DNA of 64,000 nucleotides from Deltaproteobacteria bacterium (GCA_016223005.1 JACRPW010000044.1:627-64626); one strand, 5' to 3'; numbered from the stretch's first letter, positions 12,592 through 59,897 are shown. The notes: a model not told the origin generated them from the sequence alone. Made by a program: numbers and translations.

Positions 12592-12677
12592 CTCCTTTTT
12601 ACTCGCTTTGCGAGAATTGTAAAATGGAAATTGTAAATTTTAAAATTCCCAATCTTCAATTTGCAATTTTCAATTAT

Positions 12678-13910
12678 TTAAAAAAACTCCCTCACCCACC
12701 CCTTCATCCTTGCAATGAGTTTATTAAATGTATTCCTATCCCCCCTTCCAAATCTGTTTTTTTGCGGCATCAGGTGACTATTTCCATATAGGACAAGCCC
12801 GACACCTGTTGAATACATTGGACTCCTTACCACATCCACAAGCCCGCCGATCCCTGTTGGCAATCCCCTCCTTACAGGCATATTAAATACCTGCTCTGCC
12901 AGTTCAACTATCCCGTCCATACTTGCAGTTCCGCCTGTAAGCACAATGCCTGATGCTGTCATGTTGTCATAACCTGAACTGCCTATCTCTGCACATACAA
13001 GTTGAAAAAGTTCCTCCATCCTTGGTTCTATAATCTCTGATAATATTTGCCTTGATACTGTCCTTGCCTGCCTCCCGCCTACACTCGGAACATCTATCAT
13101 CTCATCCCTGCCAACCATTGATGTCATTGCACAGCCGTATTTCTTTTTAATCTTCTCTGCCTCACTTATAGGGGTGCGAAGACCTACTGCAATATCCCCG
13201 GTAACCTGATTTCCTCCAAGAGATATAACCCCTGTATGTTTGATTGTCCCGCTGTGGTAGATGGCAATATCTGTTGTGCCTCCACCAACATCTATAAGGG
13301 CAACACCCAGGTCCTTCTCATCCGGGGCCAAAACCGCCTCGCTGCTTGCGATTTGCTGGAGGATAATATCAGCAACATCAAGTCCTGCCTTGTTTGCACT
13401 CTTTATAATATTCTGTGCTGATGTAACAGCAGCAGTGACTATATGGATTTTAACCTCTAACCTCACACCGCTCATGCCAAGGGGGTCAAGGATGCCATCC
13501 TGCTCATCCACTATATATTCCTGCGGGAGTATGTGAATTACCTCTCTGTCAGGCGGTATTGCAACTGCCTTGGCTGCGTCTATGACCCTGTCTATATCAG
13601 GTTTAGTCACCTCCTTGTCCTTGACTGCTATTACACCATGACTGTTAAACCCTTTTATATGTCCGCCTGCTATCCCTGTATAAACTGTGTTTATGCTGCA
13701 GCCTGCCATCAGTTCAGCCTCTTCTACAGCCTTTTTAATGGATTGGACAGTAGATTCAATATTCACAACAACACCCTTTCTAAGTCCTCTGGAAGGATGG
13801 CTGCCTATGCATATAATCTCAATGCCTTCTTCCTTTATTTCACCAACAATGGTGCATATTTTTGTTGTTCCTATATCCAGCCCAACAACAAGATTATCTT
13901 TTTTCCCCAT
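12678..13910 (-). CDS. ftsA: Cell division protein FtsA
   Basis: Actin-like ATPase. VGLDIGTTKI N-terminus and position between ftsQ and ftsZ. Confidence 0.95.
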   Translation of the reverse strand: MGKKDNLVVGLDIGTTKICTIVGEIKEEGIEIICIGSHPSRGLRKGVVVNIESTVQSIKKAVEEAELMAGCSINTVYTGIAGGHIKGFNSHGVIAVKDKEVTKPDIDRVIDAAKAVAIPPDREVIHILPQEYIVDEQDGILDPLGMSGVRLEVKIHIVTAAVTSAQNIIKSANKAGLDVADIILQQIASSEAVLAPDEKDLGVALIDVGGGTTDIAIYHSGTIKHTGVISLGGNQVTGDIAVGLRTPISEAEKIKKKYGCAMTSMVGRDEMIDVPSVGGRQARTVSRQILSEIIEPRMEELFQLVCAEIGSSGYDNMTASGIVLTGGTASMDGIVELAEQVFNMPVRRGLPTGIGGLVDVVRSPMYSTGVGLVLYGNSHLMPQKNRFGRGDRNTFNKLIARMKGWVREFF

Positions 13911-13932
13911 CTGTCATCACCACCTTTCTTAT

Positions 13933-14757
13933 TCAACTATTAGCCATCTTAACAACAACCCTTTTCCCATAATTCATATCTACTGTCTTTACATACTTAA
14001 TGGTACCGTTTAGTTCCTTTAACACCCTGTCAAGTCTTTCAAGTTTTTTTTGGAAGTTGTCAAATCCCATTTCAACCCTTACACCGCTGTCCATTGTATA
14101 TAGTGTTAAGCCGTAGACAGGGTCAACCTTTATCTCTGAAATGTCATCTGTGCCAAATATCTCTCTATCATCCAGCAGTTTTATTAAAAGGACAGCGTCA
14201 ATTATAAGTGATGATACCTTTTCATTATCTTCCACTCCGTCTTTTGAAATCCCAGCATTTATGACTGGCAAATCAAGGTCATCCTCCAAAGAAGCCCTTT
14301 TAAAAACAGAACCGCTCTCATCTATCAGGTAAAGTTCATCCATATTTATAAATGCAGCAGGGACCCTTTCCTTTATCTCCACAACCAACTTGTCAGGCAT
14401 CCTTCTTTTTATCTTTAATGTATTTATCCATGGATGCTTTCTGATATTTACTGCCATGTCATCTATACTGGCAGCAAGGATATTATCCCCTATACGAATG
14501 CCTGCCAGTTCCAGAATCTCATCTCTGGAAATCCTTTTGACGCCCTGTATATCTATCTCTTTTATCCGTAACAGCGGTGAGTTTAAAAGTTCCTCATAAA
14601 ATCTTTTGCCTGAAAAAGATATTGCTATGACTACTATTACTGCTGCTATGCCCTTAAATATCCTTTTAGACCTTCTGGACATACAGGTCTTTTTGACTCT
14701 TTTGAATAATGGTTCTTTCCTCCTAAAGTTTTTTGGTCTTTTAAATAACATGGGCAT
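13933..14757 (-). CDS. ftsQ: Cell division protein FtsQ/DivIB
   Basis: N-terminal TM segment, POTRA-like region and dcw position. Confidence 0.8.
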   Translation of the reverse strand: MPMLFKRPKNFRRKEPLFKRVKKTCMSRRSKRIFKGIAAVIVVIAISFSGKRFYEELLNSPLLRIKEIDIQGVKRISRDEILELAGIRIGDNILAASIDDMAVNIRKHPWINTLKIKRRMPDKLVVEIKERVPAAFINMDELYLIDESGSVFKRASLEDDLDLPVINAGISKDGVEDNEKVSSLIIDAVLLIKLLDDREIFGTDDISEIKVDPVYGLTLYTMDSGVRVEMGFDNFQKKLERLDRVLKELNGTIKYVKTVDMNYGKRVVVKMANS

Positions 14758-14760
14758 TTT

Positions 14761-15735
14761 TTAACCTTTATTCCTTACAGCCAAAAGCATCCTCTCAATA
14801 AGTTCTGTAAAATCTATGCCTGCACACCTTGCTGCCTTTGGCAGTAAACTCAGTTCTGTTAGACCAGGGACTGTGTTAAGTTCAAGAACATAGGGGTCAT
14901 TTTTTTTGTCAAGGCATACATCAACCCTTGCTGCGCCGCAGCACCCAAGGGCATTGTATGCATTAATGGCAGCCTCTTTTACCCTGCATTCAACCCCTTT
15001 CTCCAATGGTGCAGGCGCGATGTAATCTGTCATCCCTTTTGTATATTTTGACCTATAGTCATATAAACCTTTTTTGGGTTTTATCTCTACTACAGGCAAA
15101 GGTTCTCCGCTTAATATCCCTACAGTAACCTCCCTGCCCTGAATAAACCTTTCCAGGACAATCTTGTTATCAAACCTGAAGGCTTTTTTAATTGCCTTTT
15201 GCAAATCCTTTTTATCCTTTACAACAGTAAGCCCTATTGTTGAACCCTGCCTTGCAGGTTTTACTACAAGAGGAAATTTGTAATTTGTAGTTCGTAATTC
15301 GTAATTCTTAATTCCTAATTCGTAATTTCTTATAACCTGCCAATCAGGTGTTGGTATACCATGAAACCTAAAAATCTCCTTTGCTGCTGCCTTGTCAAAT
15401 GCCACTCCACTTGCAAGCACACCTGACCCTGTATATGGTATCCCCATTATCTCAAGGAGCCCCTGTATTGTGCCGTCTTCTCCATATTTGCCGTGTAGGG
15501 CGATAAATGCAAGTTTAATCTTCTTTTTCTCAATTACCTTTGCTGTATCCCTGCCTGCATCCACTGCAACCACTTTATAACCTTTACCCTTAAGCGCCTT
15601 ATATACAGCCATGCCTGAGCAGAGGGATACCTCCCTTTCAGATGACATCCCGCCCATCAAAACCCCTATTTTAAGTTTTTTTAAATTAGTAATTCGTAAT
15701 TCGTAATTCGTAATTTTTTTACTCCTCTCCGACAA
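14761..15735 (-). CDS. ddl: D-alanine--D-alanine ligase. It has a TTG start with a GAGGAGG SD. Heptamer-repeat peptides sit at the N-terminus (ITNYELRITN) and internally (NYELGIKNYELRTTNYKF).
   Basis: ATP-grasp Ddl motifs (KIGVLMGGMSSEREVSL, GSGVLASGVAFDK). The aattcgt-type repeats lie at 15684-15718 and 15275-15330. Confidence 0.92.
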   Translation of the reverse strand: MSERSKKITNYELRITNLKKLKIGVLMGGMSSEREVSLCSGMAVYKALKGKGYKVVAVDAGRDTAKVIEKKKIKLAFIALHGKYGEDGTIQGLLEIMGIPYTGSGVLASGVAFDKAAAKEIFRFHGIPTPDWQVIRNYELGIKNYELRTTNYKFPLVVKPARQGSTIGLTVVKDKKDLQKAIKKAFRFDNKIVLERFIQGREVTVGILSGEPLPVVEIKPKKGLYDYRSKYTKGMTDYIAPAPLEKGVECRVKEAAINAYNALGCCGAARVDVCLDKKNDPYVLELNTVPGLTELSLLPKAARCAGIDFTELIERMLLAVRNKG

Positions 15736-16660: not shown

Positions 16661-16680
16661 TCTGTTAATTACCTCCTCTC

Positions 16681-18069
16681 TTAAACCTTGAAACTTGCAT
16701 CTTGAATCTTCTTTAAAATCTCATCCCCTATCTGCCATATATCACCTGCACCAAATGTAATAATCATATCATCAGACTTAACCATATCTGCCAGATAATT
16801 AGGCACATCCTTTTTATTAGGTATATACACAACATTTTTATGACCATACCCTTTGATTCCTTCAAACAAACCTTTACCTGTTACACCTTCAACCTTGCCC
16901 TCTCCGGCAGGGTATATATCAGTGAGTATGAGGATGTCTGCATCATTAAATGCAGAGAGAAATTCATTAAATAGGTCTTTTGTTCGTGTGTAGCGATGCG
17001 GCTGAAACACAGCGATAACCCGTTTATTCCAGCCGTCCTTTGCTGCCTTAAGGGTCGCCTTAATCTCCTCTGGATGGTGTCCATAATCATCAATAACTAT
17101 AACATCATCCACTGTCCCTCTTATCTGAAACCTCCGTTCAACGCCGCTAAAATCCTTAAGCCCATTTTTAATATCATCAAAATCCAAGCCGAGTTCTATA
17201 GCAACTGCGGCTGCAGCAAGGCAGTTATATACATTGTGGAGTCCAGGGGTATGAGTTAGAACGCAGCCAATTTTATCTGCCCTGTTCCATATTTCAAAGG
17301 ATGTTTCCATCCCATTAAATGAAATCCCTTTCGCATGATAGTCTGCCTGTGCAAAAAGCCCATAAGTTACATGTCTCCTCTCCACCTTTGGAATCAAAGA
17401 CTGCACATTTGGATGGTCAAGACACAAGACACTTAAACCATAAAACGGCACCTTGTTTATAAATGAGAGATAGGCACCTTTGACTTCGTCCATATCTTTA
17501 TAATGGTCCATGTGCTCCCTGTCTATATTTGTTACGACAGCAATTACAGGAGATAGTTTTACAAATGTCCCATCGCTTTCATCAGCCTCTGCAACAAGGA
17601 ACTCCCCGCTTCCAAGTTTTGCATTGGTTGCCATACTATTAAGCCTGCCGCCTATAACAACAGTGGGATCCATGCCAGCGATACTGAGTATCGTTGCAAT
17701 GATTGAGGTGGTCGTTGTCTTCCCATGCGTCCCTGCAACCAAAATCCCGTATTTCATCCGCATTAGTTCTGCAAGCATCTCTGCCCTTGGAATAACAGGC
17801 AAAAGTCTTTCATGGGCATGCCTTATCTCAGGGTTGTCCTCTTTCACTGCTGAGGAATAGACCACAACATCAGCGCCATCTATATTCTCTTTCTTATGGG
17901 ATATATGCACTGCTGCACCAAGAGATGCCAGCCGCTTTGTTATAGAAGATTCTTTCGCATCTGAGCCTGTAATCTTATATCCAAGGTTTAGAAGCACCTC
18001 TGCAATCCCGCTCATGCCTATTCCGCCTATCCCAACAAAATGTATATGTTTAATCCTCCCTTTATACAT
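16681..18069 (-). CDS. murC: UDP-N-acetylmuramate--L-alanine ligase
   Basis: IHFVGIGGIGMSGIAEVL N-terminus and GTHGKTTTTS P-loop. Confidence 0.95.
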   Translation of the reverse strand: MYKGRIKHIHFVGIGGIGMSGIAEVLLNLGYKITGSDAKESSITKRLASLGAAVHISHKKENIDGADVVVYSSAVKEDNPEIRHAHERLLPVIPRAEMLAELMRMKYGILVAGTHGKTTTTSIIATILSIAGMDPTVVIGGRLNSMATNAKLGSGEFLVAEADESDGTFVKLSPVIAVVTNIDREHMDHYKDMDEVKGAYLSFINKVPFYGLSVLCLDHPNVQSLIPKVERRHVTYGLFAQADYHAKGISFNGMETSFEIWNRADKIGCVLTHTPGLHNVYNCLAAAAVAIELGLDFDDIKNGLKDFSGVERRFQIRGTVDDVIVIDDYGHHPEEIKATLKAAKDGWNKRVIAVFQPHRYTRTKDLFNEFLSAFNDADILILTDIYPAGEGKVEGVTGKGLFEGIKGYGHKNVVYIPNKKDVPNYLADMVKSDDMIITFGAGDIWQIGDEILKKIQDASFKV

Positions 18070-19139
18070 GCATCCCTCTATAAATATCTTCTACAATAAT
18101 ACTAGCCGCATCAGGCATTCCCAATTGGTGTGCCCTTTCCTCAATCTCTTTTATCTTTACTAAATTTTCATAAAGTGAAGTCAATGCATGGGCAAGTTTT
18201 GCCCCATCCAGTTCTTCCTGTTTGAACATGACAGCAGCGCCTCTGTCTGCAAGATACCTTGCATTAACCTCCTGATGGTTGTCCGCAGCAAATGGATACG
18301 GGATAAGGATCGATGCCTTGCCAAGCGCCGTAATCTCTGCAATACTTGTTGCACCGCTCCTACAGATAATCAAGTCTGCCATTTTGTATGCATCTGCCAT
18401 ATCGTCAATAAAATTAAACACATTAGTTTTGAGTTTTGAGTTTATTGTATGTTTCTTTCACCCTCTCATAATCCTCTTCACCTGTCTGGTGGATGATATT
18501 TATTGAGCAATGTTTAAGATATTCCAGCGACTCAAGAAATATTGAGTTTATTGCCTTTGCACCTTGACTGCCTCCAAAAACCAGAATGGTGAATCCTTCG
18601 CCTTTCGCCTTTCGCCTTTCGCCTTTCGCCTTTAGTATTTCCTTCCTCACAGGATTTCCTGAAACTACCACCTTGCCCTTTGGAAAATATTTTTTTGCAT
18701 CAGGAAATGCAACAAATACCCTGTCAACAAACCTCCCAAGGTATCTGTTCGTAATGCCCGGCAGGGTATTTTGTTCAAGGATTATTGTCATAACCTTCAT
18801 AATCTTTGCAGCCGCTACAACTGGAAAGGCACTATACCCGCCTGCACCTACTACAAGGTCAGGCATATATCTTCTAATCAACTTTATAGATTTAAAAATC
18901 CCCATAAGTGCCTTTAAAATGGAAATCGCCCTATTTAATAATCCCTTTCCTTTCACACCTCCAACATCTAATGTCTCAAGATGGAAACCATATTTGTAGA
19001 GTATCTTTGCCTCCAGACCCTTCTTGCTCCCTATAAATGTAATCTCATTTCCAGAATCCCTTTCCTTAAAGATTTCTGCCAGTGCAATCGCTGGAAATAA
19101 ATGTCCTCCGGTTCCGCCTCCAGTTAGTATAATTTTCAA
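18062..19139 (-). CDS. murG: MurG glycosyltransferase. It is encoded as two ORFs in different frames (18423..19139 for the N-domain, 18062..18421 for the C-domain), joined at a 3-unit aaactca heptamer tract. Deleting one 7-nt unit restores a single frame.
   Basis: The N-ORF has GGGTGGHLFPAIALA. The C-ORF has FIDDMADAYKMADLIICRSGA, the conserved MurG C-terminal motif. The frames abut at 18424-18444. Confidence 0.85.
18424..18444. repeat. Heptamer tandem repeat (minus-strand aaactca x3) at the murG frame junction
   Basis: The + strand reads tagtttt gagtttt gagttta. Confidence 0.9.
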
Positions 19140-19141
19140 TA

Positions 19142-20245: not shown

Positions 20246-21663
20246 AGCGCCTCTACCAATTTTTTAAAGACATCCCCTCTCTCCTCATAACTCTTAAACA
20301 TATCAAAACTTGAACATGCAGGGGAAAGGAGGACTATGTCTCCGCTTTTTGCTGTATTGTGTGCCTTTTTAACAGCATCTTCCATTGACAAGGCGAATAC
20401 AGTCTCTGTGCAGGCACCCAGCGCCTTTTTCATCTTCTGTCTTGCCTCTCCTATAAGTATCAAGAGTTTGACCTTTTCCTTTATCAAATCTTTAAGCACA
20501 CTGTAGTCGCCGCCTTTGTCCTTACCACCTGCTATTAGGACAATTGGCGCATTAAACCCCTCCAGACACTTCTGCAAGGCGCCGATATTTGTGCCTTTTG
20601 AATCATCGTAATAGGAAACACCGTTGATCTCTCTTGCAAACTCTACCCTGTGCGGCAGGGCATCAAAGGCATTTATGATTTTGATTACTTCATCATCCTT
20701 TAAACCGCACATTTTTGCTGCCGCTATTACAGCCATTATGTTTTCTATGTTATGGATACCCTTAAGTTTGAAACCGACAGTTGGATATATTTCTTTTGCG
20801 CCATCAAGAGAATAAACAATCCTGTTATCCTTATAATAAACCCCCTCTTCCAGAACATGGGTGCTGCTGAAAGGGATGATACGGATTTGAGATTTGAGAT
20901 TTGAGATTTGAGATTTTATAACCGGGTCATCTATATTCACAACCGCAATATCCCCTTGCCCCTGATTTTTGAATATATTAAATTTTGCATCCGCATATTC
21001 CTTAAAATTTGCGTATCTGTCCAGATGGTCCTCGGTAATGTTCAGAAGTATAGAAATATACGGCTTAAACCGTCTTATGCCCTCCAGTTGAAAACTGCTT
21101 ACCTCTGCTACCACATAATCAGACCTTTCTTTTCCCATGGCATAGTCAATCAGAGGAGTACCAATATTGCCGCCCACAAAGACATCTCTGCCTGCATCAC
21201 TCAAAACCCTGCCCAGCAGTGCTGTGGTTGTAGTTTTGCCATTTGTTCCTGTAACAGCAATAATAGGGGTGTCTATAAAATTATATGCCAGTTCAATCTC
21301 GCTTATAACCTCAATACCTTTCTTTCTTGCCCCCTGTATAGGTTCTATACTTGACGGCACACCCGGGCTTAAGATTATAAGGTCTGCCTCTGTAAAAATA
21401 TCTGCCGGGTGTTTACCTGCTGCAACCTTTACCCCTTCCATGTCATCTGAATAAGGCAGGTCTTCTATTGGTTTTAAGTCTGTTACAGTAACAACTGCCC
21501 CCTTTTCCTTCAGGAACCTTATGGTAGAAAGTCCTGTAGATGCAAGACCGACAACAAGGACATGCTTGCCTTTCAGGTCAAACTGATTAATGCGAGAAAC
21601 GATGTAACGCGGGAAACGATGTAAGGTTTCCTGCCTTTCCTGCCTTTCCCGCCTTTCTCGCAT
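20242..21663 (-). CDS. murD: UDP-N-acetylmuramoylalanine--D-glutamate ligase. The ATG 21663 start with a GAGGTG SD gives a repeat-encoded N-terminal extension (MRERRERQERQETLHRF). There is an internal KSQISNLKSQI heptamer insertion.
   Basis: Mur ligase blocks (GTNGKTTTTAL). The gatttga x4 repeat lies at 20884-20911. Confidence 0.92.
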   Translation of the reverse strand: MRERRERQERQETLHRFPRYIVSRINQFDLKGKHVLVVGLASTGLSTIRFLKEKGAVVTVTDLKPIEDLPYSDDMEGVKVAAGKHPADIFTEADLIILSPGVPSSIEPIQGARKKGIEVISEIELAYNFIDTPIIAVTGTNGKTTTTALLGRVLSDAGRDVFVGGNIGTPLIDYAMGKERSDYVVAEVSSFQLEGIRRFKPYISILLNITEDHLDRYANFKEYADAKFNIFKNQGQGDIAVVNIDDPVIKSQISNLKSQIRIIPFSSTHVLEEGVYYKDNRIVYSLDGAKEIYPTVGFKLKGIHNIENIMAVIAAAKMCGLKDDEVIKIINAFDALPHRVEFAREINGVSYYDDSKGTNIGALQKCLEGFNAPIVLIAGGKDKGGDYSVLKDLIKEKVKLLILIGEARQKMKKALGACTETVFALSMEDAVKKAHNTAKSGDIVLLSPACSSFDMFKSYEERGDVFKKLVEAL

Positions 21664-21667
21664 TACT

Positions 21668-22765
21668 TCACCTCAGTTTAAGTGTAGATATTGCTATCAA
21701 AGAAAGTATTATTGAAATTATCCAGAATCTGACAATAATCTTGGGTTCAGCCCATCCCTTGAGTTCAAAATGGTGATGGATTGGTGCCATAAGGAGAACC
21801 CTCTTCCCGCGGATCTTATAAGAGCCAACCTGAAATATTACAGAGAGCGCCTCTACAACAAAAATCCCTCCCACCAATACCAGAAGGATTTCATGCTTTG
21901 TAATAACAGCAAGTGTTCCAATAGCGCTGCCAAGTGCAAGAGAGCCTACATCACCCATAAATACCTGAGCAGGATATGTATTGAACCAGAGGAAACCAAG
22001 ACTCGCACCAACCATTGCACCTGCAAATATTGTAAGTTCACCGCTTTTTGCCACATAAAGTATCTGCAGATAGTTGGCGATTTTTATGTTTCCTGTCAGG
22101 TATGCAAGGAGCATATATGTTGCAGAAACTATCATTACAGGTCCTATAGCAAGTCCATCAAGCCCGTCTGTAAGATTCACTGCATTGGACGCACCTACTA
22201 CAACAAGCATGACAAACGGTATGTAAAAGACCCCCATGTCTATCATAACCTCTTTAAAAAAAGGCACTGTTACACGGGTATCAAACCCATTAAGGTACAG
22301 AAATAGGGCAACTGCAAACGCTATTAGAAACTGTCCTAAAAGTTTGTATGGGGGCAGAAGCCCGCGGCTGTCCCTTTTCACCAATTTGATATAATCATCA
22401 ATAAAACCGACTGCACCAAAGCCGAGGGTAATGAGGACAAGGAGCCAGACATAAAGATTTGTGAGGTTTGCCCACAGGAGTGTGGGTATAACAACTGCAA
22501 ATATTATGAGTGTCCCCCCCATAGTGGGAGTGCCTTCTTTACTTATATGATTCGGGGGGCCGTCCTTTCTTATGACCTGACCGACTTGCATCTCAGAAAG
22601 TTTCCTTATAATGTAGGGACCCAGAATAAAACTCAGAAGCAGGGCTGTAATAACAGCATAGATTGCCCTGAATGTAATATACTGAAATACATTAAAGACC
22701 GTATGATATGTGTGTAACGGATATAGTAAATGGTAAAGCATTAGTCGCTTCGCTCCATTGTCCAT
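21668..22765 (-). CDS. mraY: Phospho-N-acetylmuramoyl-pentapeptide transferase
   Basis: Polytopic membrane protein with MraY motifs ([10 protein letters not shown]). Confidence 0.95.
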
Positions 22766-22821
22766 CGGAAATTGTAGATTTTAAATTTTATAAACATTTT
22801 GCAATTCCCAATTCCCAATCT

Positions 22822-24039
22822 TCACTTTACAATGTCGTATTGTAACCTTTCAATTATCTCTTCCATGCCGACTGCCCTTGAACCTTTCACAAGCAGGATG
22901 TCTCCATTTTTCAAAATCTTTTCTAAGGCATTAACAACCTCTGATTTATTGTTAAGCGTTTGAACACATTTTTTATCCATTCCTGCCTTAATCGCGCCGT
23001 CTGCAATATCTTTTTTGAATTCACCCACAACAAATAAAAGGTCTAATCCTAATCCGCCTGCAACTTTGCCTATATATCTGTGCCTTTCTTTTGATGCATC
23101 CCCAAGTTCCAGCATATCACCCAGCACAGCGATTTTTCTGCCTTTCATCTCCGAAAGGCTTCTTAAGGATGCCTCAACAGATGCAGGATTTGCATTGTAT
23201 GTGTCATCTATGACTGTAATATCATTTTCAAGTTTAATCGGCCCCATCCTTCCATACAGGGGTTTATAGTTTTTAAGCCCATCAATAATATTTTGCTTCT
23301 TTGCGCCAATGGCAAGGCTTGCCGCAATTGCAGCAGCGGCATTTGAAAGATTATGAACGCCGTATCCATTTATATTTACCTCTGTATTGTCTCCATTCAC
23401 ATTAAATACTGCGGACATGCCGCCGTTATTCTTTGAATATTCTTTAAGAAAAACATCGGCATTAGATTTAATGCTGAATGTAATCTTTTTTTGCTTTATA
23501 GATTCTGCTATTTTTACAATCCACGGGTCATCCATATTTATTACAACAACACCATCCTCTCTGAGCCCCGAAAATATTTCACCTTTAGCAGATGCAACAC
23601 CATCAATATCTCCGAGTGTCTTCAGATGTGCTGAACCAATATTAGTCAGAAGGGCAATATCAGGCTTGCAGATACTTGTAAGTTTTGTCATCTCACCCTT
23701 TTCGCTTATACCAAGTTCTACAACTGCAATATCGTGTATGTTGTTCATCTTAAGCAGTGTAAGGGGCAGACCTATCAGGTTGTTCAGATTACCCTCTGTC
23801 TTCAGGACACAATGGGATTGCCTGAGTATTGAGGCTATCATCTCCTTTGTTGTTGTCTTGCCGCAACTGCCGCTGACTGCAATCAAGGGCACAGGGTGTC
23901 TCTCCCGCCAGTATCGTGCAAGATTGCCGAGAGCGGAAATTCCGTTAATGGCATCTATGATTTCTTTTGCTGTCAGTTCAAACATACAAACATTAGTGTC
24001 AGTGATTAGTGTCAGTGTCAGTAAAATCTTGCCTCTCAC
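22822..24039 (-). CDS. murF: UDP-MurNAc-tripeptide--D-alanyl-D-alanine ligase. The likely start is MFELTAKE near 23988.
   Basis: Mur ligase with a GSCGKTTTKEM P-loop. Confidence 0.9.
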   Translation of the reverse strand: MRGKILLTLTLITDTNVCMFELTAKEIIDAINGISALGNLARYWRERHPVPLIAVSGSCGKTTTKEMIASILRQSHCVLKTEGNLNNLIGLPLTLLKMNNIHDIAVVELGISEKGEMTKLTSICKPDIALLTNIGSAHLKTLGDIDGVASAKGEIFSGLREDGVVVINMDDPWIVKIAESIKQKKITFSIKSNADVFLKEYSKNNGGMSAVFNVNGDNTEVNINGYGVHNLSNAAAAIAASLAIGAKKQNIIDGLKNYKPLYGRMGPIKLENDITVIDDTYNANPASVEASLRSLSEMKGRKIAVLGDMLELGDASKERHRYIGKVAGGLGLDLLFVVGEFKKDIADGAIKAGMDKKCVQTLNNKSEVVNALEKILKNGDILLVKGSRAVGMEEIIERLQYDIVK

Positions 24040-25548: not shown

Positions 25549-25560
25549 CCGAAAATACCT

Positions 25561-25611
25561 CTTTCGCCTTTCGCCGTGAAAAGCATGCTTTTCACCCTTA
25601 CGCCTTTAGCC
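25561..25611. repeat. Mini-palindrome element: cgccttt-type direct repeats flanking the palindrome gtgaaaagcatgcttttcac (murE-ftsI spacer). It is homologous to 50666-50710.
   Basis: The 20-nt palindrome is identical in both copies, and the flanks are related. Confidence 0.9.
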
Positions 25612-25615
25612 TGCC

Positions 25616-29347: not shown

Positions 29348-29554
29348 GGTGGTTACAAGATTTACCTTTCTTGAATTTATTCTACCCCTGTCCCCCACCC
29401 AAATAAAAACTTATCCACTTTATACCACTTTATCCCACTGTGGCTAAACTATATGCCTCTTGGCAATTCTTGTCAAGTAAATTTTTAAGCAAATTTTAAG
29501 AGTTTTTTTATAATATTTTAGGACTTGAATAAATCCTTAAGAGTGCTATTATAA

Positions 29555-38687: not shown

Positions 38688-38688
38688 G

Positions 38689-40134
38689 ATGAAGGCAATA
38701 ATCCTTGCAGGTGGAAGCGGGACAAGGCTTTGGCCCTTGTCCAGAAGGAACTATCCCAAACAGTTTCTAAAACTAAACGGCGATAAGTCCCTTCTTCAGC
38801 AGACAGTGGAAAGATTGTCAGGTGCAGTTCAACTTGAGGACATTATCGTAATGACGAACAGTAATTATAAATTCCATGTGCTGTCAGACCTTCAGGCTCT
38901 TAACTCTAAACTCTCAACTCTGAACTCTAATATCATCCTTGAACCAGCGGCAAGAAATACTGCGCCTGCTATTGCGCTAGGGGTTAAATATTGTCTTGAA
39001 AGACTCGGCTGTGATTATGATGAAATAATATTCCTGTCGCCTTCAGACCACATCATCAAACCCAATGACAAGTTCACAGAATACCTTGCATCTGCAAAGG
39101 CTATTGCAGAGAAAGGCTATATAGTAACATTTGGGATAAAACCGGATAGACCTGAGACAGGATATGGATATATAAAAGTCAGAAGTCAGGAGCCTGCCCC
39201 CGCAGGCTTCAATCGGGGGTCAGAAGTCAGAAGTCAGGAATTCTTGAGAGTTGAAAGGTTTGTGGAAAAACCAGATGTAGAGACTGCAAGACGTTATTTA
39301 GATGAAGGGAATTACTACTGGAATTCAGGCATGTTTGCATTCAGTATAGGCACAATGATTAAGGAATTTGAAAGACATGCACCGGCAATAAGTAATATGC
39401 TAACTAAAAGTTTTGACGAGATGCTGTCAAACTTTAAGGATATGCCTGATGTATCCATAGACTACGCTGTAGCAGAAAAATCAAAGGATGTTGTAACAGT
39501 CCCCCTTGATTTATACTGGAATGACATTGGCTCATGGGATTCATTGTGTGATGTTATGGATAAGGATGAAGATGGAAATATCAAAAAGGGTGATGTTATT
39601 GCTATAGACACAAAAAATACCCTGATAATAGGAAATAAAAGGCTTATATCAACCATTGGACTTAATGACTGTCTTATAGTTGAAACTGACGATGCTGTGC
39701 TTATAGCAAGAAAAGGAGAGACTCAAAAGGTTAAAGATATAGTTAGAAAGTTAAAGGCAGATGGCAGAAAAGAGGCAGAAGAACATGTTACCACATATAG
39801 GCCATGGGGCAGTTATACAGTGCTTGAAGAGGGGGAGCGGTATAAGATAAAAAGGATTGTTGTTTACCCAAATAAAAAGTTAAGCCTGCAGATGCACCAT
39901 CACAGGAGCGAACACTGGGTTGTTGTGAAAGGAACTGCACGGGTGACAGTTGGCGATATAAAAAGGACTATCCATGAAAACGAATCTGCATATGTCCCTA
40001 AATCAACTGTCCATAGACTTGAAAACCCCGGCAAAGTGCCTCTAGAGATAATAGAGGTTCAAAATGGTGAATATGTTGGAGAAGATGATATTGTGAGGGT
40101 TGATGATGATTATGGGAGACAAAAACTTACTTGA
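38689..40134 (+). CDS. manC: Mannose-1-phosphate guanylyltransferase / mannose-6-phosphate isomerase (ManC type, cupin C-terminus). It carries an in-frame insertion of a heptamer/mini-palindrome element.
   Basis: MKAIILAGGSGTRLWPLSR N-terminus and C-terminal cupin. The ORF listed from 38632 is an upstream extension overlapping the PMM gene. Confidence 0.88.
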   Translation: MKAIILAGGSGTRLWPLSRRNYPKQFLKLNGDKSLLQQTVERLSGAVQLEDIIVMTNSNYKFHVLSDLQALNSKLSTLNSNIILEPAARNTAPAIALGVKYCLERLGCDYDEIIFLSPSDHIIKPNDKFTEYLASAKAIAEKGYIVTFGIKPDRPETGYGYIKVRSQEPAPAGFNRGSEVRSQEFLRVERFVEKPDVETARRYLDEGNYYWNSGMFAFSIGTMIKEFERHAPAISNMLTKSFDEMLSNFKDMPDVSIDYAVAEKSKDVVTVPLDLYWNDIGSWDSLCDVMDKDEDGNIKKGDVIAIDTKNTLIIGNKRLISTIGLNDCLIVETDDAVLIARKGETQKVKDIVRKLKADGRKEAEEHVTTYRPWGSYTVLEEGERYKIKRIVVYPNKKLSLQMHHHRSEHWVVVKGTARVTVGDIKRTIHENESAYVPKSTVHRLENPGKVPLEIIEVQNGEYVGEDDIVRVDDDYGRQKLT

Positions 40135-46609: not shown

Positions 46610-46629
46610 GAATTTAATATAGCATAAAA

Positions 46630-46655
46630 CCTAAAAATAGACATTGATTTTTGGG
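46630..46655. repeat. 26-bp palindromic element CCCAAAAATAGACATTGATTTTTGGG, copy 1 of 3 (the others are 62357-62384 and 63898-63924). All three are promoter-proximal.
   Basis: 9-nt inverted arms around an 8-nt core. The three copies are near-identical. Confidence 0.85.
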
Positions 46656-46809
46656 AAAACCTGCCTGTCTGCCGTGCCAACGGCACAGGCAGGCAAGTTT
46701 GTCCAATAGCGAGGTTTTTAATCGCTACTTTACGGATAAAATTTTGATTTTGAAAATACGCAGGCAATATGCTATCTTGCAGGAAAACTGAATTATTGGG
46801 AGGAATATT

Positions 46810-49324: not shown

Positions 49325-49403
49325 TTGTTATATGTCCTTGCATAAGTAAGATGTCATTGCGAGGATTTTTGTTCCGAAGCAATCTCTAATTATTTGATTT
49401 TAT

Positions 49404-50356: not shown

Positions 50357-52026
50357 TGTCAAATAAATCAATAATAGCATCTGTTATATCAGGCACTATT
50401 ATGATATTTGCATTCCCGCCTTTTGATATATGGGTTATAGGTTGGTTTGGCATGGCGCCTTTATTCTTTGCCATTTATGATAAAAAGCCGTTGCAGGCAT
50501 TTGCACTGGGCTTTATCTGGGGCATTGTTTTTTTTCTCGGCACTGTTTACTGGGTTGTAAACTCAATGGTAAATTACGGTGGTGTGCCTGTATGGGCAAG
50601 TGTGCTGGCGCTTCTGCTTCTTGTAATTGTCTTAAGCCTTTACCCTGCTGTATTCGCTTATTTTACCTTTAGCCGTGAAAAGCATGCTTTTCACCCTTCA
50701 GCCTTTCGCCTGATTTTTATCCCTTTCCTCTGGGTCAGTCTTGAATTTGTGCGGACATATCTTTTTACAGGCTTTCCTTGGGTCTTACTTGGTTATTCAC
50801 AAACAGCATTCCTCCCAATAATGCAGATTGCTGATATAACAGGTGTCTATGGTGTATCGTTTTTGATAATCATGGTCAATGTTTTTCTATTCAATTGCGG
50901 ACTGCAGATTGCAGATTGCGGATTTAAAATTAAAATTTCTAAAATGGAATGGATTATAGTATTTTCGGTTTTAATCCTTGTCTTTGGTTATGGTCATTTA
51001 AGGATTGGACAGATTGATAATTTAACTAAAAACTGGAGGCAGATTAAGATAGGTATTGCCCAGGGCAATATAGATCAGGCGCAGAAATGGGACCCTGCAC
51101 ATCAGGAAGGAACGATAGATATTTACAGGCAGATTAGTATAGACATTGCACAAAATGAAAAGGACATTGACCTTATTATATGGCCAGAAACAGCCACACC
51201 ATTTTATCTTCAGTCTGATGAAAAATTCGGTCCGCTTATCTTTGATATAGCAAAAACTCTGGCAGTAAACCTTATTACAGGAAGTCCTGCGCATGAGTAT
51301 ACATCTGATGGTAAAACTATAAATTACTATAACAGCGTGTTTCTGATTTCAAAGCAGGGAGGCATTGTCAATAGATACGATAAAGTCCATCTCGTGCCTT
51401 TCGGCGAATATGTCCCTTTTAAAAGATTTCTTCCATTTGAAAAACTTGTTGCAGGTGTCGGGGATTTCAGTTCAGGAAAAAACTTCAAGCCCCTTGCATT
51501 AAATAATGATGATACATTTGGCATCCTCATATGTTTTGAGGCAATATTTCCTGACATAGCAAGGCAGCTTTTGAAAAATGGCGCAGACTTTTTAATCACA
51601 GTAACAAATGATGCATGGTTTGGAAGGTCATCTGCACCATATCAGCACCTATCCCAATCATTAGTGCGGGCTGTTGAAGGCAGGACATTTTTAATCCGCT
51701 CTGCCAATACAGGTATAAGCGCAGTGATTGACCCTGTTGGAAGGATAAAGGTTAAAAGCGGACTGTTTACAAGAGAAGGTTTAGTAGATACAATATCATT
51801 AAAAGAAAGGTCTTTCACAACATTTTATACCCGATATGGCGATGTGTTTGCCATTGGATGCATATTCATCTCAATAGTTATATTTATTACTAATGCAAGA
51901 AAAAGGGGGCAGACTTGCCTATTGACATTTGCCCTCTTTATCTTCTCTATCACCTTTTTTACCTCTGCCGTCCCCTTTTCTTATTTTTCTTATTGGTCCC
52001 CTTTTCTTGTTTTCTTATTATCCTAA
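50356..52026 (+). CDS. lnt: Apolipoprotein N-acyltransferase (CN-hydrolase). It carries an in-frame mini-palindrome insertion (FSREKHAFHPSAFRL) and a heptamer-repeat insertion (GLQIADCGFKIKI).
   Basis: Multi-TM N-terminal domain plus CN-hydrolase with E...K...C (ILICFEAIFPD). The repeats lie at 50666-50710 and 50894-50935. Confidence 0.88.
   Translation: MSNKSIIASVISGTIMIFAFPPFDIWVIGWFGMAPLFFAIYDKKPLQAFALGFIWGIVFFLGTVYWVVNSMVNYGGVPVWASVLALLLLVIVLSLYPAVFAYFTFSREKHAFHPSAFRLIFIPFLWVSLEFVRTYLFTGFPWVLLGYSQTAFLPIMQIADITGVYGVSFLIIMVNVFLFNCGLQIADCGFKIKISKMEWIIVFSVLILVFGYGHLRIGQIDNLTKNWRQIKIGIAQGNIDQAQKWDPAHQEGTIDIYRQISIDIAQNEKDIDLIIWPETATPFYLQSDEKFGPLIFDIAKTLAVNLITGSPAHEYTSDGKTINYYNSVFLISKQGGIVNRYDKVHLVPFGEYVPFKRFLPFEKLVAGVGDFSSGKNFKPLALNNDDTFGILICFEAIFPDIARQLLKNGADFLITVTNDAWFGRSSAPYQHLSQSLVRAVEGRTFLIRSANTGISAVIDPVGRIKVKSGLFTREGLVDTISLKERSFTTFYTRYGDVFAIGCIFISIVIFITNARKRGQTCLLTFALFIFSITFFTSAVPFSYFSYWSPFLVFLLS
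50666..50710. repeat. Second copy of the gtgaaaagcatgcttttcac mini-palindrome element, inside lnt and translated in-frame
   Basis: Same palindrome with cctttagcc / ccttcagcctttcgcc flanks. Confidence 0.9.
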
Positions 52027-52212
52027 CCTGTCTTCTAAATGTCAATAATGACAAAAATATTCTTGCTTTTAGCAATAATCTATCATATAAATTTTGTTCC
52101 GTATAATTCTTACTGCACTCTACACTTGGTATGGGTTTAAGTGTTAATCTGTATCAGGAGACAAGTCTGGAACGGCAGCAGCAACAAACAGTCAAAGGGA
52201 GGAAGTGAAGCA

Positions 52213-53796: not shown

Positions 53797-53865
53797 AAAA
53801 AAGTTAAAGAGTTTAAGAGTAAAAGCAAAAACAGTTGAGGAGTTAAATACTCCTAATCCTAAACT

Positions 53866-54861: not shown

Positions 54862-56157
<1,296 letters not shown>

Positions 56158-56164
56158 TTGTTAA

Positions 56165-56255
56165 GGAGAGATGTCCGAGCGGCCGAAGGAGCACGACTGG
56201 AAATCGTGTGTGCGCTAATACCGTACCGAGGGTTCAAATCCCTCTCTCTCCGCCA
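56165..56255 (+). tRNA. tRNA-Ser (anticodon GGA) with a long variable arm, CCA encoded
   Basis: GGAGAGA/TCTCTCC acceptor, anticodon loop CUGGAAA, T-arm GAGGGTTCAAATCCCTC. Confidence 0.9.
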
Positions 56256-56348
56256 GATTGAGTTGAGAGTTAAGGAGTTATGGAGTTACTGTTTTTGTTT
56301 TTACTCCTAAACTCTTTAACTCCGAACCGTAGTTAATTGTGGTTAGTA

Positions 56349-56456
56349 TTGATAGCCGGGTCTTGCGCAGCGGTTAGGTTGCGAACCCCGCCAGGTCCGG
56401 AAGGAAGCAACGGCAGTAACTCTATTCCGGGTGCCGCAAGTCTGCCTGGCTATCAA
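56349..56456 (+). ncRNA. ffs: Signal recognition particle RNA (4.5S/ffs, small bacterial type)
   Basis: Conserved domain IV motif CCAGGUCCGGAAGGAAGCA. The terminal helix is gatagcc...ggctatc. It has the conserved position immediately upstream of dnaX. Confidence 0.85.
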
Positions 56457-56511
56457 TAATAACCACAAGATTATTTCAAATCTTAAATCTTAAATTTGAA
56501 ATTACAAAATT

Positions 56512-58095: not shown

Positions 58096-58207
58096 AGATG
58101 TCTGATTACACAGATTACAAAGGCAGATTACGCAGATTAGAAAAGATTAGTTTTAAATCGGTGTAATCGTTTTTAAAAATCTGTGTAATCATTTATAGGG
58201 AGGATAG

Positions 58208-58519
58208 ATGAAGAATCTGGGTAATATATTGAAACAGGCACAAAAGATGCAGGAAAAGATGGCACAGGTTCAGCAGGAACTTGCTGCCAAAACCATTGAA
58301 TCTTCTTCAGGAGGCGGCATGGTTACTGCTGTTGTAAACGGCAAGCAGGAACTTGTATCTATAAAGATTGACCCTTCTGTTGTAAATGCCGATGATGTGG
58401 AAATGCTTCAGGATCTGGTTGCGGCTGCTGTAAACAGCGCTATAAAAAAATCACAGGAGATGATGTCTGAAGAGATGGGCAAGGTAACAGGGGGACTCAA
58501 TATCCCTGGACTATTTTAA
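58208..58519 (+). CDS. ybaB: Nucleoid-associated protein YbaB/EbfC
   Basis: MQEKMAQVQQELA...GGGMV conserved YbaB sequence. The dnaX-ybaB-recR synteny is present. Confidence 0.92.
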   Translation: MKNLGNILKQAQKMQEKMAQVQQELAAKTIESSSGGGMVTAVVNGKQELVSIKIDPSVVNADDVEMLQDLVAAAVNSAIKKSQEMMSEEMGKVTGGLNIPGLF

Positions 58520-58558
58520 ACTGTTTTTACCTTACCTTTGAGTTTTGCAATTTGATTT

Positions 58559-59173
58559 TTGAGTTATTTTTATATGGCATACTATGCAGAGCCGATAATG
58601 AGGCTTGTTCAGGAACTTTCAAGACTGCCGGGTATAGGAGAAAAGACCGCAACCCGTCTTGCAATATACATCCTGAATTCCTCTAATGGATACGCAGAGG
58701 CGCTTGTTAAAAGTCTTCTGGATGTAAAACAGAATATAAAGGCATGTTCAGTCTGTTTTAATATGACAGACAGGGACACTTGTTCAATATGCAGTAATAC
58801 AGGAAGAAATCATGAGATTATATGCCTTGTTGAAGGCATAAACGACCTTGCTGCTATTGAAAAGGCAGGCAGATATAAAGGCACCTACCATGTCCTGCAT
58901 GGCGTAATCTCTCCTTTAAAGGGTATAGGTCCTGATGATATAGGGGTAGCGGAACTGCTTAAAAGGGTTCATGCCGGAAATATTAAAGAGGTTATAATCG
59001 CAACAAACCCCACTGTTGACGGAGAGGCAACTGCCCTTTATATTACAAAGGTTTTAAAACCATCAGGCATAAAGATTACAAGGCTCGCAACAGGCATCCC
59101 AATGGGAAGCGATATTGAATATATAGATAGTGCAACACTTAGCATGGCAATAGATGGAAGAAGGGAGATATGA
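58559..59173 (+). CDS. recR: Recombination protein RecR
   Basis: HhH LPGIGEKTA, C4 zinc finger CSVC...CSIC, Toprim. Confidence 0.95.
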   Translation: MSYFYMAYYAEPIMRLVQELSRLPGIGEKTATRLAIYILNSSNGYAEALVKSLLDVKQNIKACSVCFNMTDRDTCSICSNTGRNHEIICLVEGINDLAAIEKAGRYKGTYHVLHGVISPLKGIGPDDIGVAELLKRVHAGNIKEVIIATNPTVDGEATALYITKVLKPSGIKITRLATGIPMGSDIEYIDSATLSMAIDGRREI

Positions 59174-59176
59174 TTT

Positions 59177-59764
59177 TTGGAGGTTGAAATGGCTGATTAC
59201 ACTGAGATAAGATGGCATGGAAGGGCACAGCAGGGCATTGTTACTGCGGCAAAGGTTCTGGCAGAGGCGGCATTATCCAGCGGCAAGTATGTTCAGGCGT
59301 TTCCTGAGTTTGGTCCAGAAAGGATGGGCGCTCCTGTCAGGGCGTTCAACAGGATTTCATCGGAACCAATCAGGATTCATGGACAGGTAACCAATCCCCA
59401 TATCATCCTTATAGTTGACCCAACCCTTATAGGCACGGTAAATGTTACAGAAGGCACACCTCAAAATGCAGTATTTATCATAAATACCCCGAAACTACCT
59501 GATGAGATGAAGAAAAAACTATCACTGGGCAGCCATGCAAGGGTCTTCACCATTGATGCAAGCAAGATATCAATTGAGTGTATCGGCAGGCATATACCGA
59601 ATACGCCGATGCTCGGTGCAATGGCAAAGGCAACAGGTGTAGTAAGTGTTGATGCACTGACAGATGACTTTAAAGAGAACTATGCAAAGAAATATAGTCC
59701 AAAGGTTATAGAGGGAAATATTAGTGCTATCAGGCATGGCTTTGAACAGGTAAGGGAGGGCTAG
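59177..59764 (+). CDS. porC: Pyruvate:ferredoxin (2-oxoacid) oxidoreductase gamma subunit
   Basis: EIRWHGRAQQGIVTAAKVLAEAA, the canonical gamma-subunit N-terminus. Confidence 0.88.
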   Translation: MEVEMADYTEIRWHGRAQQGIVTAAKVLAEAALSSGKYVQAFPEFGPERMGAPVRAFNRISSEPIRIHGQVTNPHIILIVDPTLIGTVNVTEGTPQNAVFIINTPKLPDEMKKKLSLGSHARVFTIDASKISIECIGRHIPNTPMLGAMAKATGVVSVDALTDDFKENYAKKYSPKVIEGNISAIRHGFEQVREG

Positions 59765-59897
59765 ACGACATTCTGCGAATGTCGAATTGTAAATTGAAGA
59801 TTGAAAATTGGGAATTTGAAAATGTTTATAAAATTTAAAATCTAATATTTACAATTTTCATTTTACAATTTGAGCGAAGCGAACAAAGGGAGGGCTG

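Follow-up and report, generated by a model that had tools for sequence, protein, structure and literature searches.

The 64,000-nucleotide (nt) stretch analysed here (GCA_016223005.1 JACRPW010000044.1:627-64626; hereafter the window) belongs to a deltaproteobacterial metagenome-assembled genome (MAG) and carries a compact division and cell wall (dcw) gene cluster including ftsA, together with a four-subunit por (pyruvate:ferredoxin oxidoreductase) operon. Its spacers contain four families of short sequences. These are true repeats, dispersed in one clade of uncultivated groundwater ‘Deltaproteobacteria’ (the relatives of the MAG GWC2_42_11). In Families 1 and 4 degenerate heptanucleotides form inverted arrays, in which a left arm faces its own complement, and Families 2 and 3 consist of hairpin modules, 23-34 nt long and of the repetitive extragenic palindromic (REP) or small-repeat type, that recur in the clade. 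The elements may function as co-transcribed, orientation-dependent intercistronic hairpins affecting mRNA processing or translation, a reading to which a probability of roughly 0.45 is given. The window proteins have their best matches in deltaproteobacterial MAGs, and its FtsZ and MraY equal at 100% identity proteins of an NCBI MAG carrying the label ‘Deltaproteobacteria bacterium’. A cyanobacterial origin, which the resemblance to cyanobacterial tandem repeats would suggest, was rejected on the strength of these best matches, the compact dcw cluster with ftsA and the four-subunit por operon. The relatives compared have an FtsZ 73-80% or a MraY 80-88% identical to that of the window. They include GWC2_42_11 (L002), GCA_016234925.1 (L005), GCA_016200645.1 (L159), an ENA contig (L160) and one Logan assembly (L004 and L158), the last being the closest relative (MraY 88% identical). 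Copy counts refer throughout to one 64-kb window of a MAG and to contigs of its relatives.

The initial annotation had proposed four repeat families in this DNA, some with copies in opposite orientations. All four are present within about 10 nt of the positions given, far beyond chance, and de novo repeat finding recovers each. The range 8380-8417 for Family 2 marks the right site but ends about 10 nt short of the end of the hairpin, and the range 5038-5070 for Family 3 is also rightly sited, although the measured copy spans 5029-5060. Shuffled sequence, named beforehand as the decisive comparison, leaves the families standing: against dinucleotide shuffles the pattern searches for Families 2-4 expect 0.00-0.01 matches, while the three pairs of Family 1 spacers align with local scores of 30, 37 and 57 compared to shuffle means of 10.6-12.7 (z = 10-20). 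Every other spacer in the window scores at most 19 against Family 1. De novo matches within Family 1 comprise 70 nt at 87% identity (22764-22833 vs 59786-59855) and, between the copies at 12.6 kb and 59.8 kb, 50 nt at 80% plus 39 nt at 87%; a covariance model of the family finds exactly three matches in the window. The 15-mer core of Family 1 alone, with three mismatches allowed, is not significant (8 matches vs 5.1 expected). The Family 2 core TCAAGGCTWWAGCCTTGAGTTAC occurs at 8405-8427 and 11369-11391 (0.01 expected; de novo match of 32 nt at 88%), the Family 3 copies have 31 of 32 nt in common (97%, 0 expected), and the segments of Family 4 at 53802-53835 and 56288-56321 are 94% identical over 34 nt when one is inverted (0 expected), which bears out the opposite orientations. 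The genes named as flanking Family 1 (ftsA and ftsZ, murF and mraY, and those for the gamma and delta pyruvate:ferredoxin oxidoreductase subunits) are confirmed with Pfam. In an Rfam 15 search of the window at gathering scores only tRNA-Gly, tRNA-Ser and the signal recognition particle (SRP) RNA pass, and at E ≤ 1 the sole overlap with the four families is a chance-level SCARNA7 match (23 bits, E = 0.15) over the porC-porD copy of Family 1 (copy C). An interpretation of the repeats as a clustered regularly interspaced short palindromic repeat (CRISPR) array was set aside as their spacing is irregular.

Family 1 is a composite element, consisting of an optional 5′ GC mini-hairpin (CGACATTC-nnn-GAATGTCG, or GCCTTACGGCA), arms that enclose ATTTTAAAAT as their centre, and a GCRAAGC mini-hairpin at the 3′ end. 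As read along the neighbouring genes, a left arm of 3-5 heptamers (AATTGNA or GATTGNR) is followed by a centre usually including the perfect palindrome ATTTTAAAAT, next by a variable middle, and then by a right arm of complementary units (TNCAATT) and the GC mini-hairpin CTCGCRAAGCGAG or GGAGCGAAGCGAC. Families 1 and 4 have the same plan, 3-5 degenerate 7-nt units (AATTGNA or GAGTTWA) with a short centre and complementary units, and a single strand of either folds as a 60-100-nt AT-rich imperfect hairpin. Elements of Family 1 are 60-115 nt long and most copies carry the terminal inverted repeats AATTGTAAATTG...CATTTTACAATT. Identity at a lag of 7 nt amounts to 0.52-0.61 in the three Family 1 spacers versus about 0.30 at other lags, and 18 of the 19 clade elements folded have a hairpin potential of z -2 to -7. 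Copy C reaches -32.3 kcal/mol (z = -4.5) on the sense strand versus -21.6 on the antisense strand, and the covariance model favours the sense strand in all three window copies. The 3′ hairpin either holds a Shine-Dalgarno sequence (GGAGCGAAGCGAC-ATG), or AAGGAGG and a start codon come within about 15 nt of it. At ftsZ the hairpin is followed by AAAAAGGAGG and the ATG, and at mraY, as for thiF, psd, lgt, ftsI and a JAB-domain gene in relatives, GGAG lies within the hairpin 9-11 nt before the ATG. In the murF-mraY copy (copy B) the left arm encodes the last five codons of murF and the stop codon (...YDIVK and stop), and the 3′ end, GGAGCGAAGCGAC-TA-ATG, is the Shine-Dalgarno source for mraY (start 22741; MraY annotated with 357 residues). 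The 5′ mini-hairpin CGACATTCTGCGAATGTCG of the por copy also precedes copies in related contigs, and the rpsL-rpsG copy of L147 (a GWC2_42_11-like contig) forms a subfamily with copies B and C, as all have the centre AAAATGTTTATAAAATTTAAAATCTA.

All three window copies of Family 1 lie between co-directional genes in one orientation relative to transcription (ftsA-ftsZ, murF-mraY and porC-porD). Genome and metagenome scans and the covariance model bring the Family 1-type junctions in contigs of the clade to about 20. Six are within ribosomal-protein gene clusters (rpmJ-rpsM; rpsK-rpsD, in three species and in one of them shortened; rplR-rpsE; nusG-rplK; rpsL-rpsG; rpsS-rplV), and others are ftsL-ftsI and sites upstream of an HU/IHF-type gene, a JAB-domain gene, thiF, psd, lgt, serS and tRNA-Glu. 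Downstream genes were identified by Pfam (rpsM, rpsE, rplK, rpsD, rplV, the HU/IHF-type and JAB-domain genes, thiF, psd, ftsZ, mraY, porD), by N-terminal sequences only (rpsG, lgt, ftsI, serS) or by ARAGORN (tRNA-Glu), and the genes upstream of the element in the ribosomal clusters were named by eye, from their C-terminal sequences. Over distinct junctions 18 elements are sense and two antisense (p ~4e-4 by our own binomial estimate). The copy before rplK (L147) and that before rpsE (L146) are near-identical paralogues differing at few positions. A target-site duplication or a clean empty site for Family 1 was not found among the orthologous junctions compared; the terminal AATT is palindromic at both ends, so that a duplication is indistinguishable from the inverted repeat, the spacers of L158/L004 are unalignable, and the short rpsK-rpsD form in L156 has the look of an element that lost internal sequence, not of an empty site. 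Between the orthologous Family 1-type elements of L007 (5226-5350) and L126 (2738-2837) the difference is an insertion, nested and some 30 nt long, of the TCCCCGA hairpin TCCCCGAATG...ATCGGGGA, and the same hairpin occupies the ftsA-ftsZ spacer of L004 (1-64). This suggests that very small hairpins are themselves mobile in the clade.

The ftsA-ftsZ copy (copy A) is strongly conserved. Its spacer is 94.7-95.6% identical to those of L002 and L005 over 113-114 nt, while the FtsZ proteins of the three genomes are 76-79% and the flanking genes about 80% identical, and when 60-nt bins are slid along the alignment the spacer reaches 0.93-0.97 versus mostly 0.72-0.88 for coding bins. The differences are confined to a GGG that became GGA (in the fold, G.U to A-U), one base in the mini-hairpin loop, the length of an A-run and a junction base, and the variant heptamers stand in unchanged order. 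As these orthologues are much more alike than the three paralogues inside the window, and the order of heptamers is kept, the copy appears to be under purifying selection. At the same spacer L159 has a 94-nt inverted array of an unrelated unit, ATAGGCN, laid out as in Family 1, and L004 a different GC hairpin. Dcw spacers above 40 nt in the window, L159, L160, L002 and L005 are mostly heptamer arrays, the flavour of which varies from spacer to spacer and from genome to genome, with eight flavours in one operon of L159; the ftsZ-proA spacer of relatives likewise holds unrelated heptamer palindromes.

Family 4 has the same architecture as Family 1, built from GAGTTWA and TAACTCC units, and its flavour also fills a spacer (4824-4900) in L084 (GWC2_42_11), before an open reading frame (ORF) of 175 residues taken as rplJ. 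More generally, arrays with a period of 7 nt occur at 11 sites in the window compared to 0 in 20 randomisations, while periods of 5, 6, 10 and 11 give 0. The richness in short repeats claimed initially is therefore upheld, and de novo finding adds families that had not been listed. The families are real and non-random, but to call them distinct is partly misleading, as Families 1 and 4 and several of the unlisted arrays are flavours of one architecture. Three or more 7-nt units stand head to tail above chance, as in heptanucleotide repeats, and Families 1 and 4 in addition consist of convergent paired arrays able to form a stem-loop. The plain, non-palindromic form is exemplified by the murB-ddl array, which is found in five genomes (the window, L002, L005, L159 and L160) and whose units drift (AATTACG, AAATTAC, AAATTTC, AAAGTCA). 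Repeats of the GATTACRCA type form an inverted pair between dnaX and ybaB (58103-58191) and are also seen in L005 (2380-2460, ddl-ftsQ spacer), L007 (5776-5807) and L071.

Within genes a heptamer is an uncommon repeat unit, as 7 cannot be divided by 3. The in-gene arrays of the window are translated in frame and, in Ddl (RNYELGIKNYELRTTNYKF), MurD (SQISNLKSQI) and MurG, fall in loops of variable length, and the same loops in relatives hold other heptamer flavours or unrelated sequence. A 52-nt repeat (D12; 88% identical) joins the ftsI-murE spacer (25562-25613) to the membrane domain of lnt (50661-50712), where it is translated as ...YFTFSREKHAFHPSAFRL.... The murG gene (18062-19139) is split into ORFs of 238 and 119 residues right after an (AAACTCA) array, with the junction at 18421-18423, and removal of one 7-nt unit would fuse them in frame (...KLKTNVFNFIDDMA), as in relatives; the split could reflect slippage heterogeneity, a pseudogene or an error in the MAG assembly.

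Families 2 and 3 are of another kind. Family 2 is a 7-bp hairpin, TCAAGGC-TWWA-GCCTTGA, with a GTTAC tail, set within hairpin clusters that share TTGAG/CTCAA. In the first copy the core reads TCAAGGCTAAAGCCTTGAGTTAC in gene orientation (8405-8427), the nnr stop codon (8418-8420) lies in the loop, the sense strand is without a U-tract, and the terminator scan responds on the non-transcribed strand only. The nnr-tsaE spacer is only 22 nt long in L004. Both hairpin modules of Family 2 recur, with their order swapped, in a GWC2_42_11-type contig. Family 3 is a hairpin with a 10-bp stem, AAAATAGCGA-N9-TCGCTATTTT, followed by ACGGA and placed in one orientation upstream of yajQ and aspS. The yajQ copy is about 35-65 nt upstream of the ATG (4996), in a spacer that folds at -21.2 kcal/mol (z = -3.8). 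The orthologous aspS copy in L148 (4424-4457), about 45 nt upstream of the gene, equals the yajQ copy at 34 of 34 nt, and a palindrome termed D8, CCCAAAAAT-N8-ATTTTTGGG, accompanies Family 3 upstream of aspS both in the window and in L148. Since the 34-nt copy and D8 are kept in L148 while the rest of the spacer is unalignable, this points to a conserved site upstream of aspS, which may be an operator, a weak terminator or a leader hairpin. Near-consensus promoters (62399-62426, TTGACA-16-TACAAT with TG, and 63882-63854) follow closely downstream of two of the three D8 copies. The features are compiled in Table 1.

Table 1. Repeat elements and period-7 arrays. Positions are counted from the first nucleotide of the window unless a contig is named; match scores are those of the Family 1 covariance model.
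Feature	Position	Strand	Context and composition
Family 1 copy A	12586..12677	-	whole ftsA-ftsZ spacer; model match 12602-12675, 81.6 bits on minus vs 30.7 on plus
Copy A, heptamer arms	~12616-12675
Copy A, mini-hairpin H2	12602-12614		CTCGCAAAGCGAG, then AAAAAGGAGG; ftsZ ATG at 12585
Family 1 copy B	22742..22835	-	murF-mraY spacer; model match 22744-22834, 59.9 bits sense vs 41 antisense
Family 1 copy C	59765..59897	+	porC-porD spacer; model match 94 bits sense vs 43.7 antisense
Copy C, mini-hairpin H1	59766-59784		CGACATTCTGCGAATGTCG
Copy C, arms	59785-59870
Copy C, H2-like hairpin	59872-59883		GAGCGAAGCGAA, then GGGAGGG; porD ATG 59898
Family 2 copy 1	8369..8436	.	nnr-tsaE junction; three-hairpin cluster; -22.8 kcal/mol, z = -3.6
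Family 2 copy 2	11351..11406	-	whole ftsZ-proA spacer; TTGAGTTAC-a-GTAACTCAAGGCTTTAGCCTTGA, then AAACCTTTTT
Family 3 copy 1	5029..5060	-	tldD-yajQ spacer; AAAATAGCGA-GGTTTTTAA-TCGCTATTTT, then ACGGA
Family 3 copy 2	46705..46736	+	divergent rarA-aspS region; orientation to the downstream gene as in copy 1
D8 palindrome	46629-46661; 62357-62389; 63897-63929; L148 4579-4609		conserved in the orthologous rarA-aspS spacer
Family 4 copy 1	53797..53865	+	whole serA-hisZ spacer; inverted GAGTTWA-type array with inner AGGAGT/ACTCCT hairpin
Family 4 copy 2	56264..56325	+	between tRNA-Ser (56165-56255) and SRP RNA (56354-56454); GAGTTRA / TAACTCC; -26.8 kcal/mol, z = -3.6
Plain tandem array	15661..15718	-	murB-ddl spacer; (AATTACG)4 in gene orientation; lag-7 identity 0.63; non-palindromic form
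ftsI-murE spacer array	25549..25615	-	GGCGAAA-type heptamers flanking the palindrome GTGAAAAGCATGCTTTTCAC
In-gene array, ddl	15277-15327
In-gene arrays, murG	18592-18641; 18428-18455
In-gene array, murD	20879-20922
In-gene array, lnt	50894-50925
Further in-gene arrays	36132-36169; 38896-38931; 7680-7714

Elements between co-directional genes would be transcribed within the operon mRNA, where one in sense orientation would fold into a hairpin between the cistrons, with an exposed ribosome-binding site close downstream. Such a hairpin may uncouple the downstream cistron from the upstream one, and downstream expression would then be set through mRNA processing or stabilisation, at an RNase III or RNase E site or by a protective 5′ or 3′ hairpin; the element may also deliver the ribosome-binding site to the downstream gene. 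Formation of the arrays and their changes of flavour are probably due to slippage together with inverted duplication on a local scale, or to copying in the manner of MITEs (miniature inverted-repeat transposable elements), and single copies may afterwards be retained by selection.

Several observations weigh against this role in the mRNA. The closest relative (L158/L004) has dcw spacers of only 2-27 nt without arrays, which makes the elements dispensable. Covariation that would speak for selection on pairing was not found, as the arm pairs are invariant, apart from one of 16 that is doubly changed (covariation term -0.5 kcal/mol), and the variable sixth base of the heptamer is mostly mismatched or unpaired. 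Folding energies are mixed as to strand: among 17 sense-oriented elements the sense strand is the more stable in 11 and the less stable in six. Two Family 1-type copies, at a tRNA-gene junction and at mraZ-rsmH in L160, are antisense, and the two Family 4 copies are opposite in orientation relative to transcription. A promoter-like TTGNAA-18-TAAAAT is present inside the Family 1 element on both strands, and the arrays inside ddl, murD, murG and lnt, one of which puts murG out of frame, have the character of junk.

Some of these features are what would be expected of selfish or neutral DNA, produced either by slippage with inverted duplication nearby or through MITE-like copying, tolerated where least harmful (in spacers and variable protein loops) and devoid of function. 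The dcw cluster free of arrays, the shifts of flavour with eight in a single operon, the invasion of variable protein loops and of lnt together with the frameshift in murG, the near-identical paralogues before rplK and rpsE, the nested TCCCCGA insertion and the terminal inverted repeats AATTGTAAATTG...CATTTTACAATT can all be accounted for in this way. However, an ftsA-ftsZ copy that is 93-97% identical between flanking genes at about 80%, with the order of its heptamers kept, is unlike neutral decay or array homogenisation, and neither the orientation bias of 18:2 nor the retention of Family 3 and D8 in the orthologous rarA-aspS spacer fits easily with an absence of function. Against the transpositional variant, the junctions yielded neither a target-site duplication nor a clean empty site, and the L156 form resembles an internal deletion. 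A functionless origin is judged somewhat unlikely. It is harder still to regard the elements as portable internal promoters, an explanation granted only a small chance, in which the left arm would give a -35-like TTGNAA, and the centre or right arm a -10-like TAAAAT or TACAAT, for the downstream gene. The sense strand of copy A does contain TTGCAA-18-TAAAAT, TTGAAG-18-TACAAT and TTTAAA-17-TACAAT, and as read by eye TTGNAA stands 18 nt before the ATTTTAAAAT centre in copy A and the L147 copy and before GAAAAT in copy C; yet the copy A matches reach 9 of 12 positions, on both strands and with a suboptimal 18-nt spacer, and such sites are close to the level of shuffles in AT-rich DNA (59 vs 50 expected, 68 vs 49 expected). 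The junctions nusG-rplK and rpmJ-rpsM and the sites upstream of the tRNA, serS and ftsZ coincide with promoter positions in E. coli, while rpsK-rpsD, rplR-rpsE, rpsS-rplV, porC-porD and murF-mraY would be unexpected ones. The strong conservation of sequence, and not of structure alone, would suit a promoter, and promoter-bearing repeats have precedents in Correia elements and Neisseria REP2 (PMC3184786), but a palindrome puts the hexamers on both strands and so leaves the 18:2 bias unexplained, and the ATAGGCN array of L159 lacks such hexamers at the very same spacer.

A role at the level of the DNA, whether as site arrays for a nucleoid or regulatory protein, as cruciforms, as recombination hot spots or as terminators, is improbable for the elements as a whole. 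The initial annotation had named terminators, protein-binding sites and recombination hot spots as possible roles. A constant AATTG core at regular 7-bp spacing would suit a binding protein, and GCGAAGC is a very stable DNA mini-hairpin. Family 3 (ATAGCGA-N9-TCGCTAT) and D8 (CCCAAAAAT-N8-ATTTTTGGG) resemble operator-type dyads and are conserved upstream of aspS, with two of the three D8 copies adjoining near-consensus promoters. A symmetric DNA role predicts no orientation bias, however, and the complete change of flavour at one spacer speaks against a sequence-specific binder. As a terminator only one element is plausible, the Family 2 copy that follows ftsZ, which is flagged as terminator-like on the sense strand (11386-11369, minus; stem, then the tail AAACCTTTTT). 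The scan also passes the D8 copy at 63898-63923 (minus strand); for Family 4 it lists a single site, the inner hairpin of copy 1 (53854-53838), and this on the strand that is not transcribed, and none is listed for Families 1 and 3. Efficient termination by the hairpins of Families 1 and 4 is unlikely, as they are without a U-tract and directly precede essential co-transcribed genes, those of Family 1 being inside operons. The suggestion of recombination hot spots finds no support: dcw gene order is identical in the five relatives compared, without sign of rearrangement around the repeats, even though these turn over. Known sites were also compared with Families 1 and 3 by eye, against consensus sequences: MraZ boxes are unfit in spacing and sequence, the GG-GC spacing of a sigma-54 promoter is wrong, the dyad spans 21 nt compared to 25 for CIRCE, and IHF, FNR and CRP sites have no adequate match.

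The mRNA-level reading has parallels among characterized systems. RNase III processing hairpins lie between cistrons in the early mRNA of phage T7 and in the rplL-rpoB and rpsO-pnp regions of E. coli. Like them, the elements may form irregular, mismatched hairpins of at least 20 bp between co-transcribed genes, where cleavage leaves protective stem-loops, although the known sites are not repeat families and the parallel would be one of function only. ERIC and the Correia MITEs are co-transcribed hairpins with orientation-dependent effects, ERIC altering mRNA stability via RNase E (PMC3184786, PMC2229807), and Neisseria REP2 carries a promoter and a ribosome-binding site (PMC3184786), comparable to the Shine-Dalgarno sequence supplied by the 3′ end of Family 1.

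In structure the elements are a distinctive composite form within known kinds of repeats, that is, heptamer simple-sequence repeats and MITE- or REP-like repeats, and in the literature searched no description for this clade was found. The claim that a genome so rich in short repeats is unusual is true, but there are precedents. Among long simple-sequence repeats, heptamers are reported to be the kind with the greatest abundance in the majority of bacterial genomes (PMC4679880, citing Mrazek 2007). Xanthomonas has GGGAATC repeats in 70-75 convergent pairs, mostly between co-directional ORFs and at the same genes in related species, and the GGGGAYT repeats of Nostoc and the short tandemly repeated repetitive (STRR) sequences of cyanobacteria are also heptanucleotide repeats (PMC4692102). 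TAACTGA repeats in Beggiatoaceae, cyanobacteria and Bacteroidetes stand just upstream of start codons, for which a role in translation has been proposed (PMC4679880), and Geobacter has several heptanucleotide elements, some in genes (PMC2700814). The arrays of the clade agree with these in their tandem 7-nt units, in a mostly intergenic location between co-directional ORFs near gene ends or starts, in convergent pairs forming stem-loops as in Xanthomonas, in the presence of some copies within ORFs, and in being kept between the same genes of related species while length and sequence vary. They differ in having many flavours per genome instead of one dominant unit, AT-rich units for which a G-quadruplex is not expected, constant terminal GC mini-hairpins in Family 1, one of them with a Shine-Dalgarno sequence, and one copy conserved almost base for base across genera.

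The resemblance to MITEs (ERIC, Correia/CREE, RUP, Nezha, Chunjie; PMC3184786, PMC2229807) lies in a length of 60-130 nt, terminal inverted repeats, long imperfect hairpins, co-transcription with neighbours and copies that may overlap gene ends or sit in genes. Family 1 is small, bounded by terminal inverted repeats and multicopy, as shown by the three window copies and the roughly 20 junctions of the clade contigs. Its arms, however, are tandem 7-nt units, neither a target-site duplication nor a partner transposase was identified in the 64-kb window, and flavours that differ by site are unexplained by a single mobile master copy. Families 2 and 3 in turn resemble REP sequences, bacterial interspersed mosaic elements (BIMEs) and REP doublets (REPINs; PMC3116915, PMC3184786) as 20-35-nt imperfect palindromes at gene ends, some of them head to head (11369-11400), but their stems are only moderately GC-rich, each has two copies in 64 kb, and the GTAG head was not found next to the palindrome of either (Family 2 has GTAAC, Family 3 none). 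A MITE-like family with constant flanks (AACCCGGACGAGCCGGA...) is seen, among the matches listed, in the Olavius Delta 1 symbiont and related Desulfobacterales.

Similar arrays extend beyond the clade. A scan of a genome collection with ATTGNAAANTGAAGATTGNNAATT returned at least 120 stretches, where a back-of-envelope estimate expects about 1 to 10 by chance, and a metagenome scan with the 3′ end of the element returned 32. Among the matches listed, for which the scan gives no copy numbers, are many plain (RATTGAA)n arrays in Prevotella and other Bacteroidales and others in Planctomycetota, Acidobacteriota, Nitrospirota, candidate-phyla bacteria and further groups, and the inverted architecture appears in a subset from Deltaproteobacteria, Nitrospirota and Nitrospinota, for example in the spacer before an HdrA/QmoA-like flavoprotein gene (named from its N-terminal sequence only) of two Nitrospirota. 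On the ATTGAAR strand of the AATTGAA/GATTGAA arrays every unit includes TGA, so that three units place stops in all three frames. On a speculative view that probably goes too far, inverted heptamer arrays would be a widespread, structure-selected intercistronic class made by a dedicated local mechanism and not by ordinary transposition. This would fit with the spacers of related genomes, which keep their size and layout (from the stop codon through left arm, loop and right arm to an A-rich tract that includes the Shine-Dalgarno sequence) while the unit is swapped, with arrays in frame in the same protein loops across genomes, and with AATTGAA/GATTGAA arrays in many phyla among the matches listed. 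If so, the arrays would represent a general and so far unrecognised operon punctuation in bacteria. Heptamer repeats have been described without an established function (PMC4679880, PMC4692102), and the clade offers a comparative system for this old open question, with a clean case in the ftsZ copy, frozen at 93-97% across genera, replaced by another flavour in one relative and absent from the dcw cluster of the closest. The in-gene arrays and the murG frameshift also bear on the annotation and assembly quality of such MAGs.

Additional features of the window lie outside the repeat families. An ORF of 353 residues at 249-1310 (minus strand) matches Pfam PF18501, the REC1 lobe of the Cas12a type (E = 5e-31), and is far too short for a full Cas12a. 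It is adjoined by direct repeats of about 185 nt (1371-1555 and 2183-2368; 86-98% identical, about 812 nt apart) that flank small ORFs. At about 29400-29550, upstream of mraZ, a divergent spacer of 156 nt with 28% GC marks a switch both in the orientation of the genes and in GC skew.

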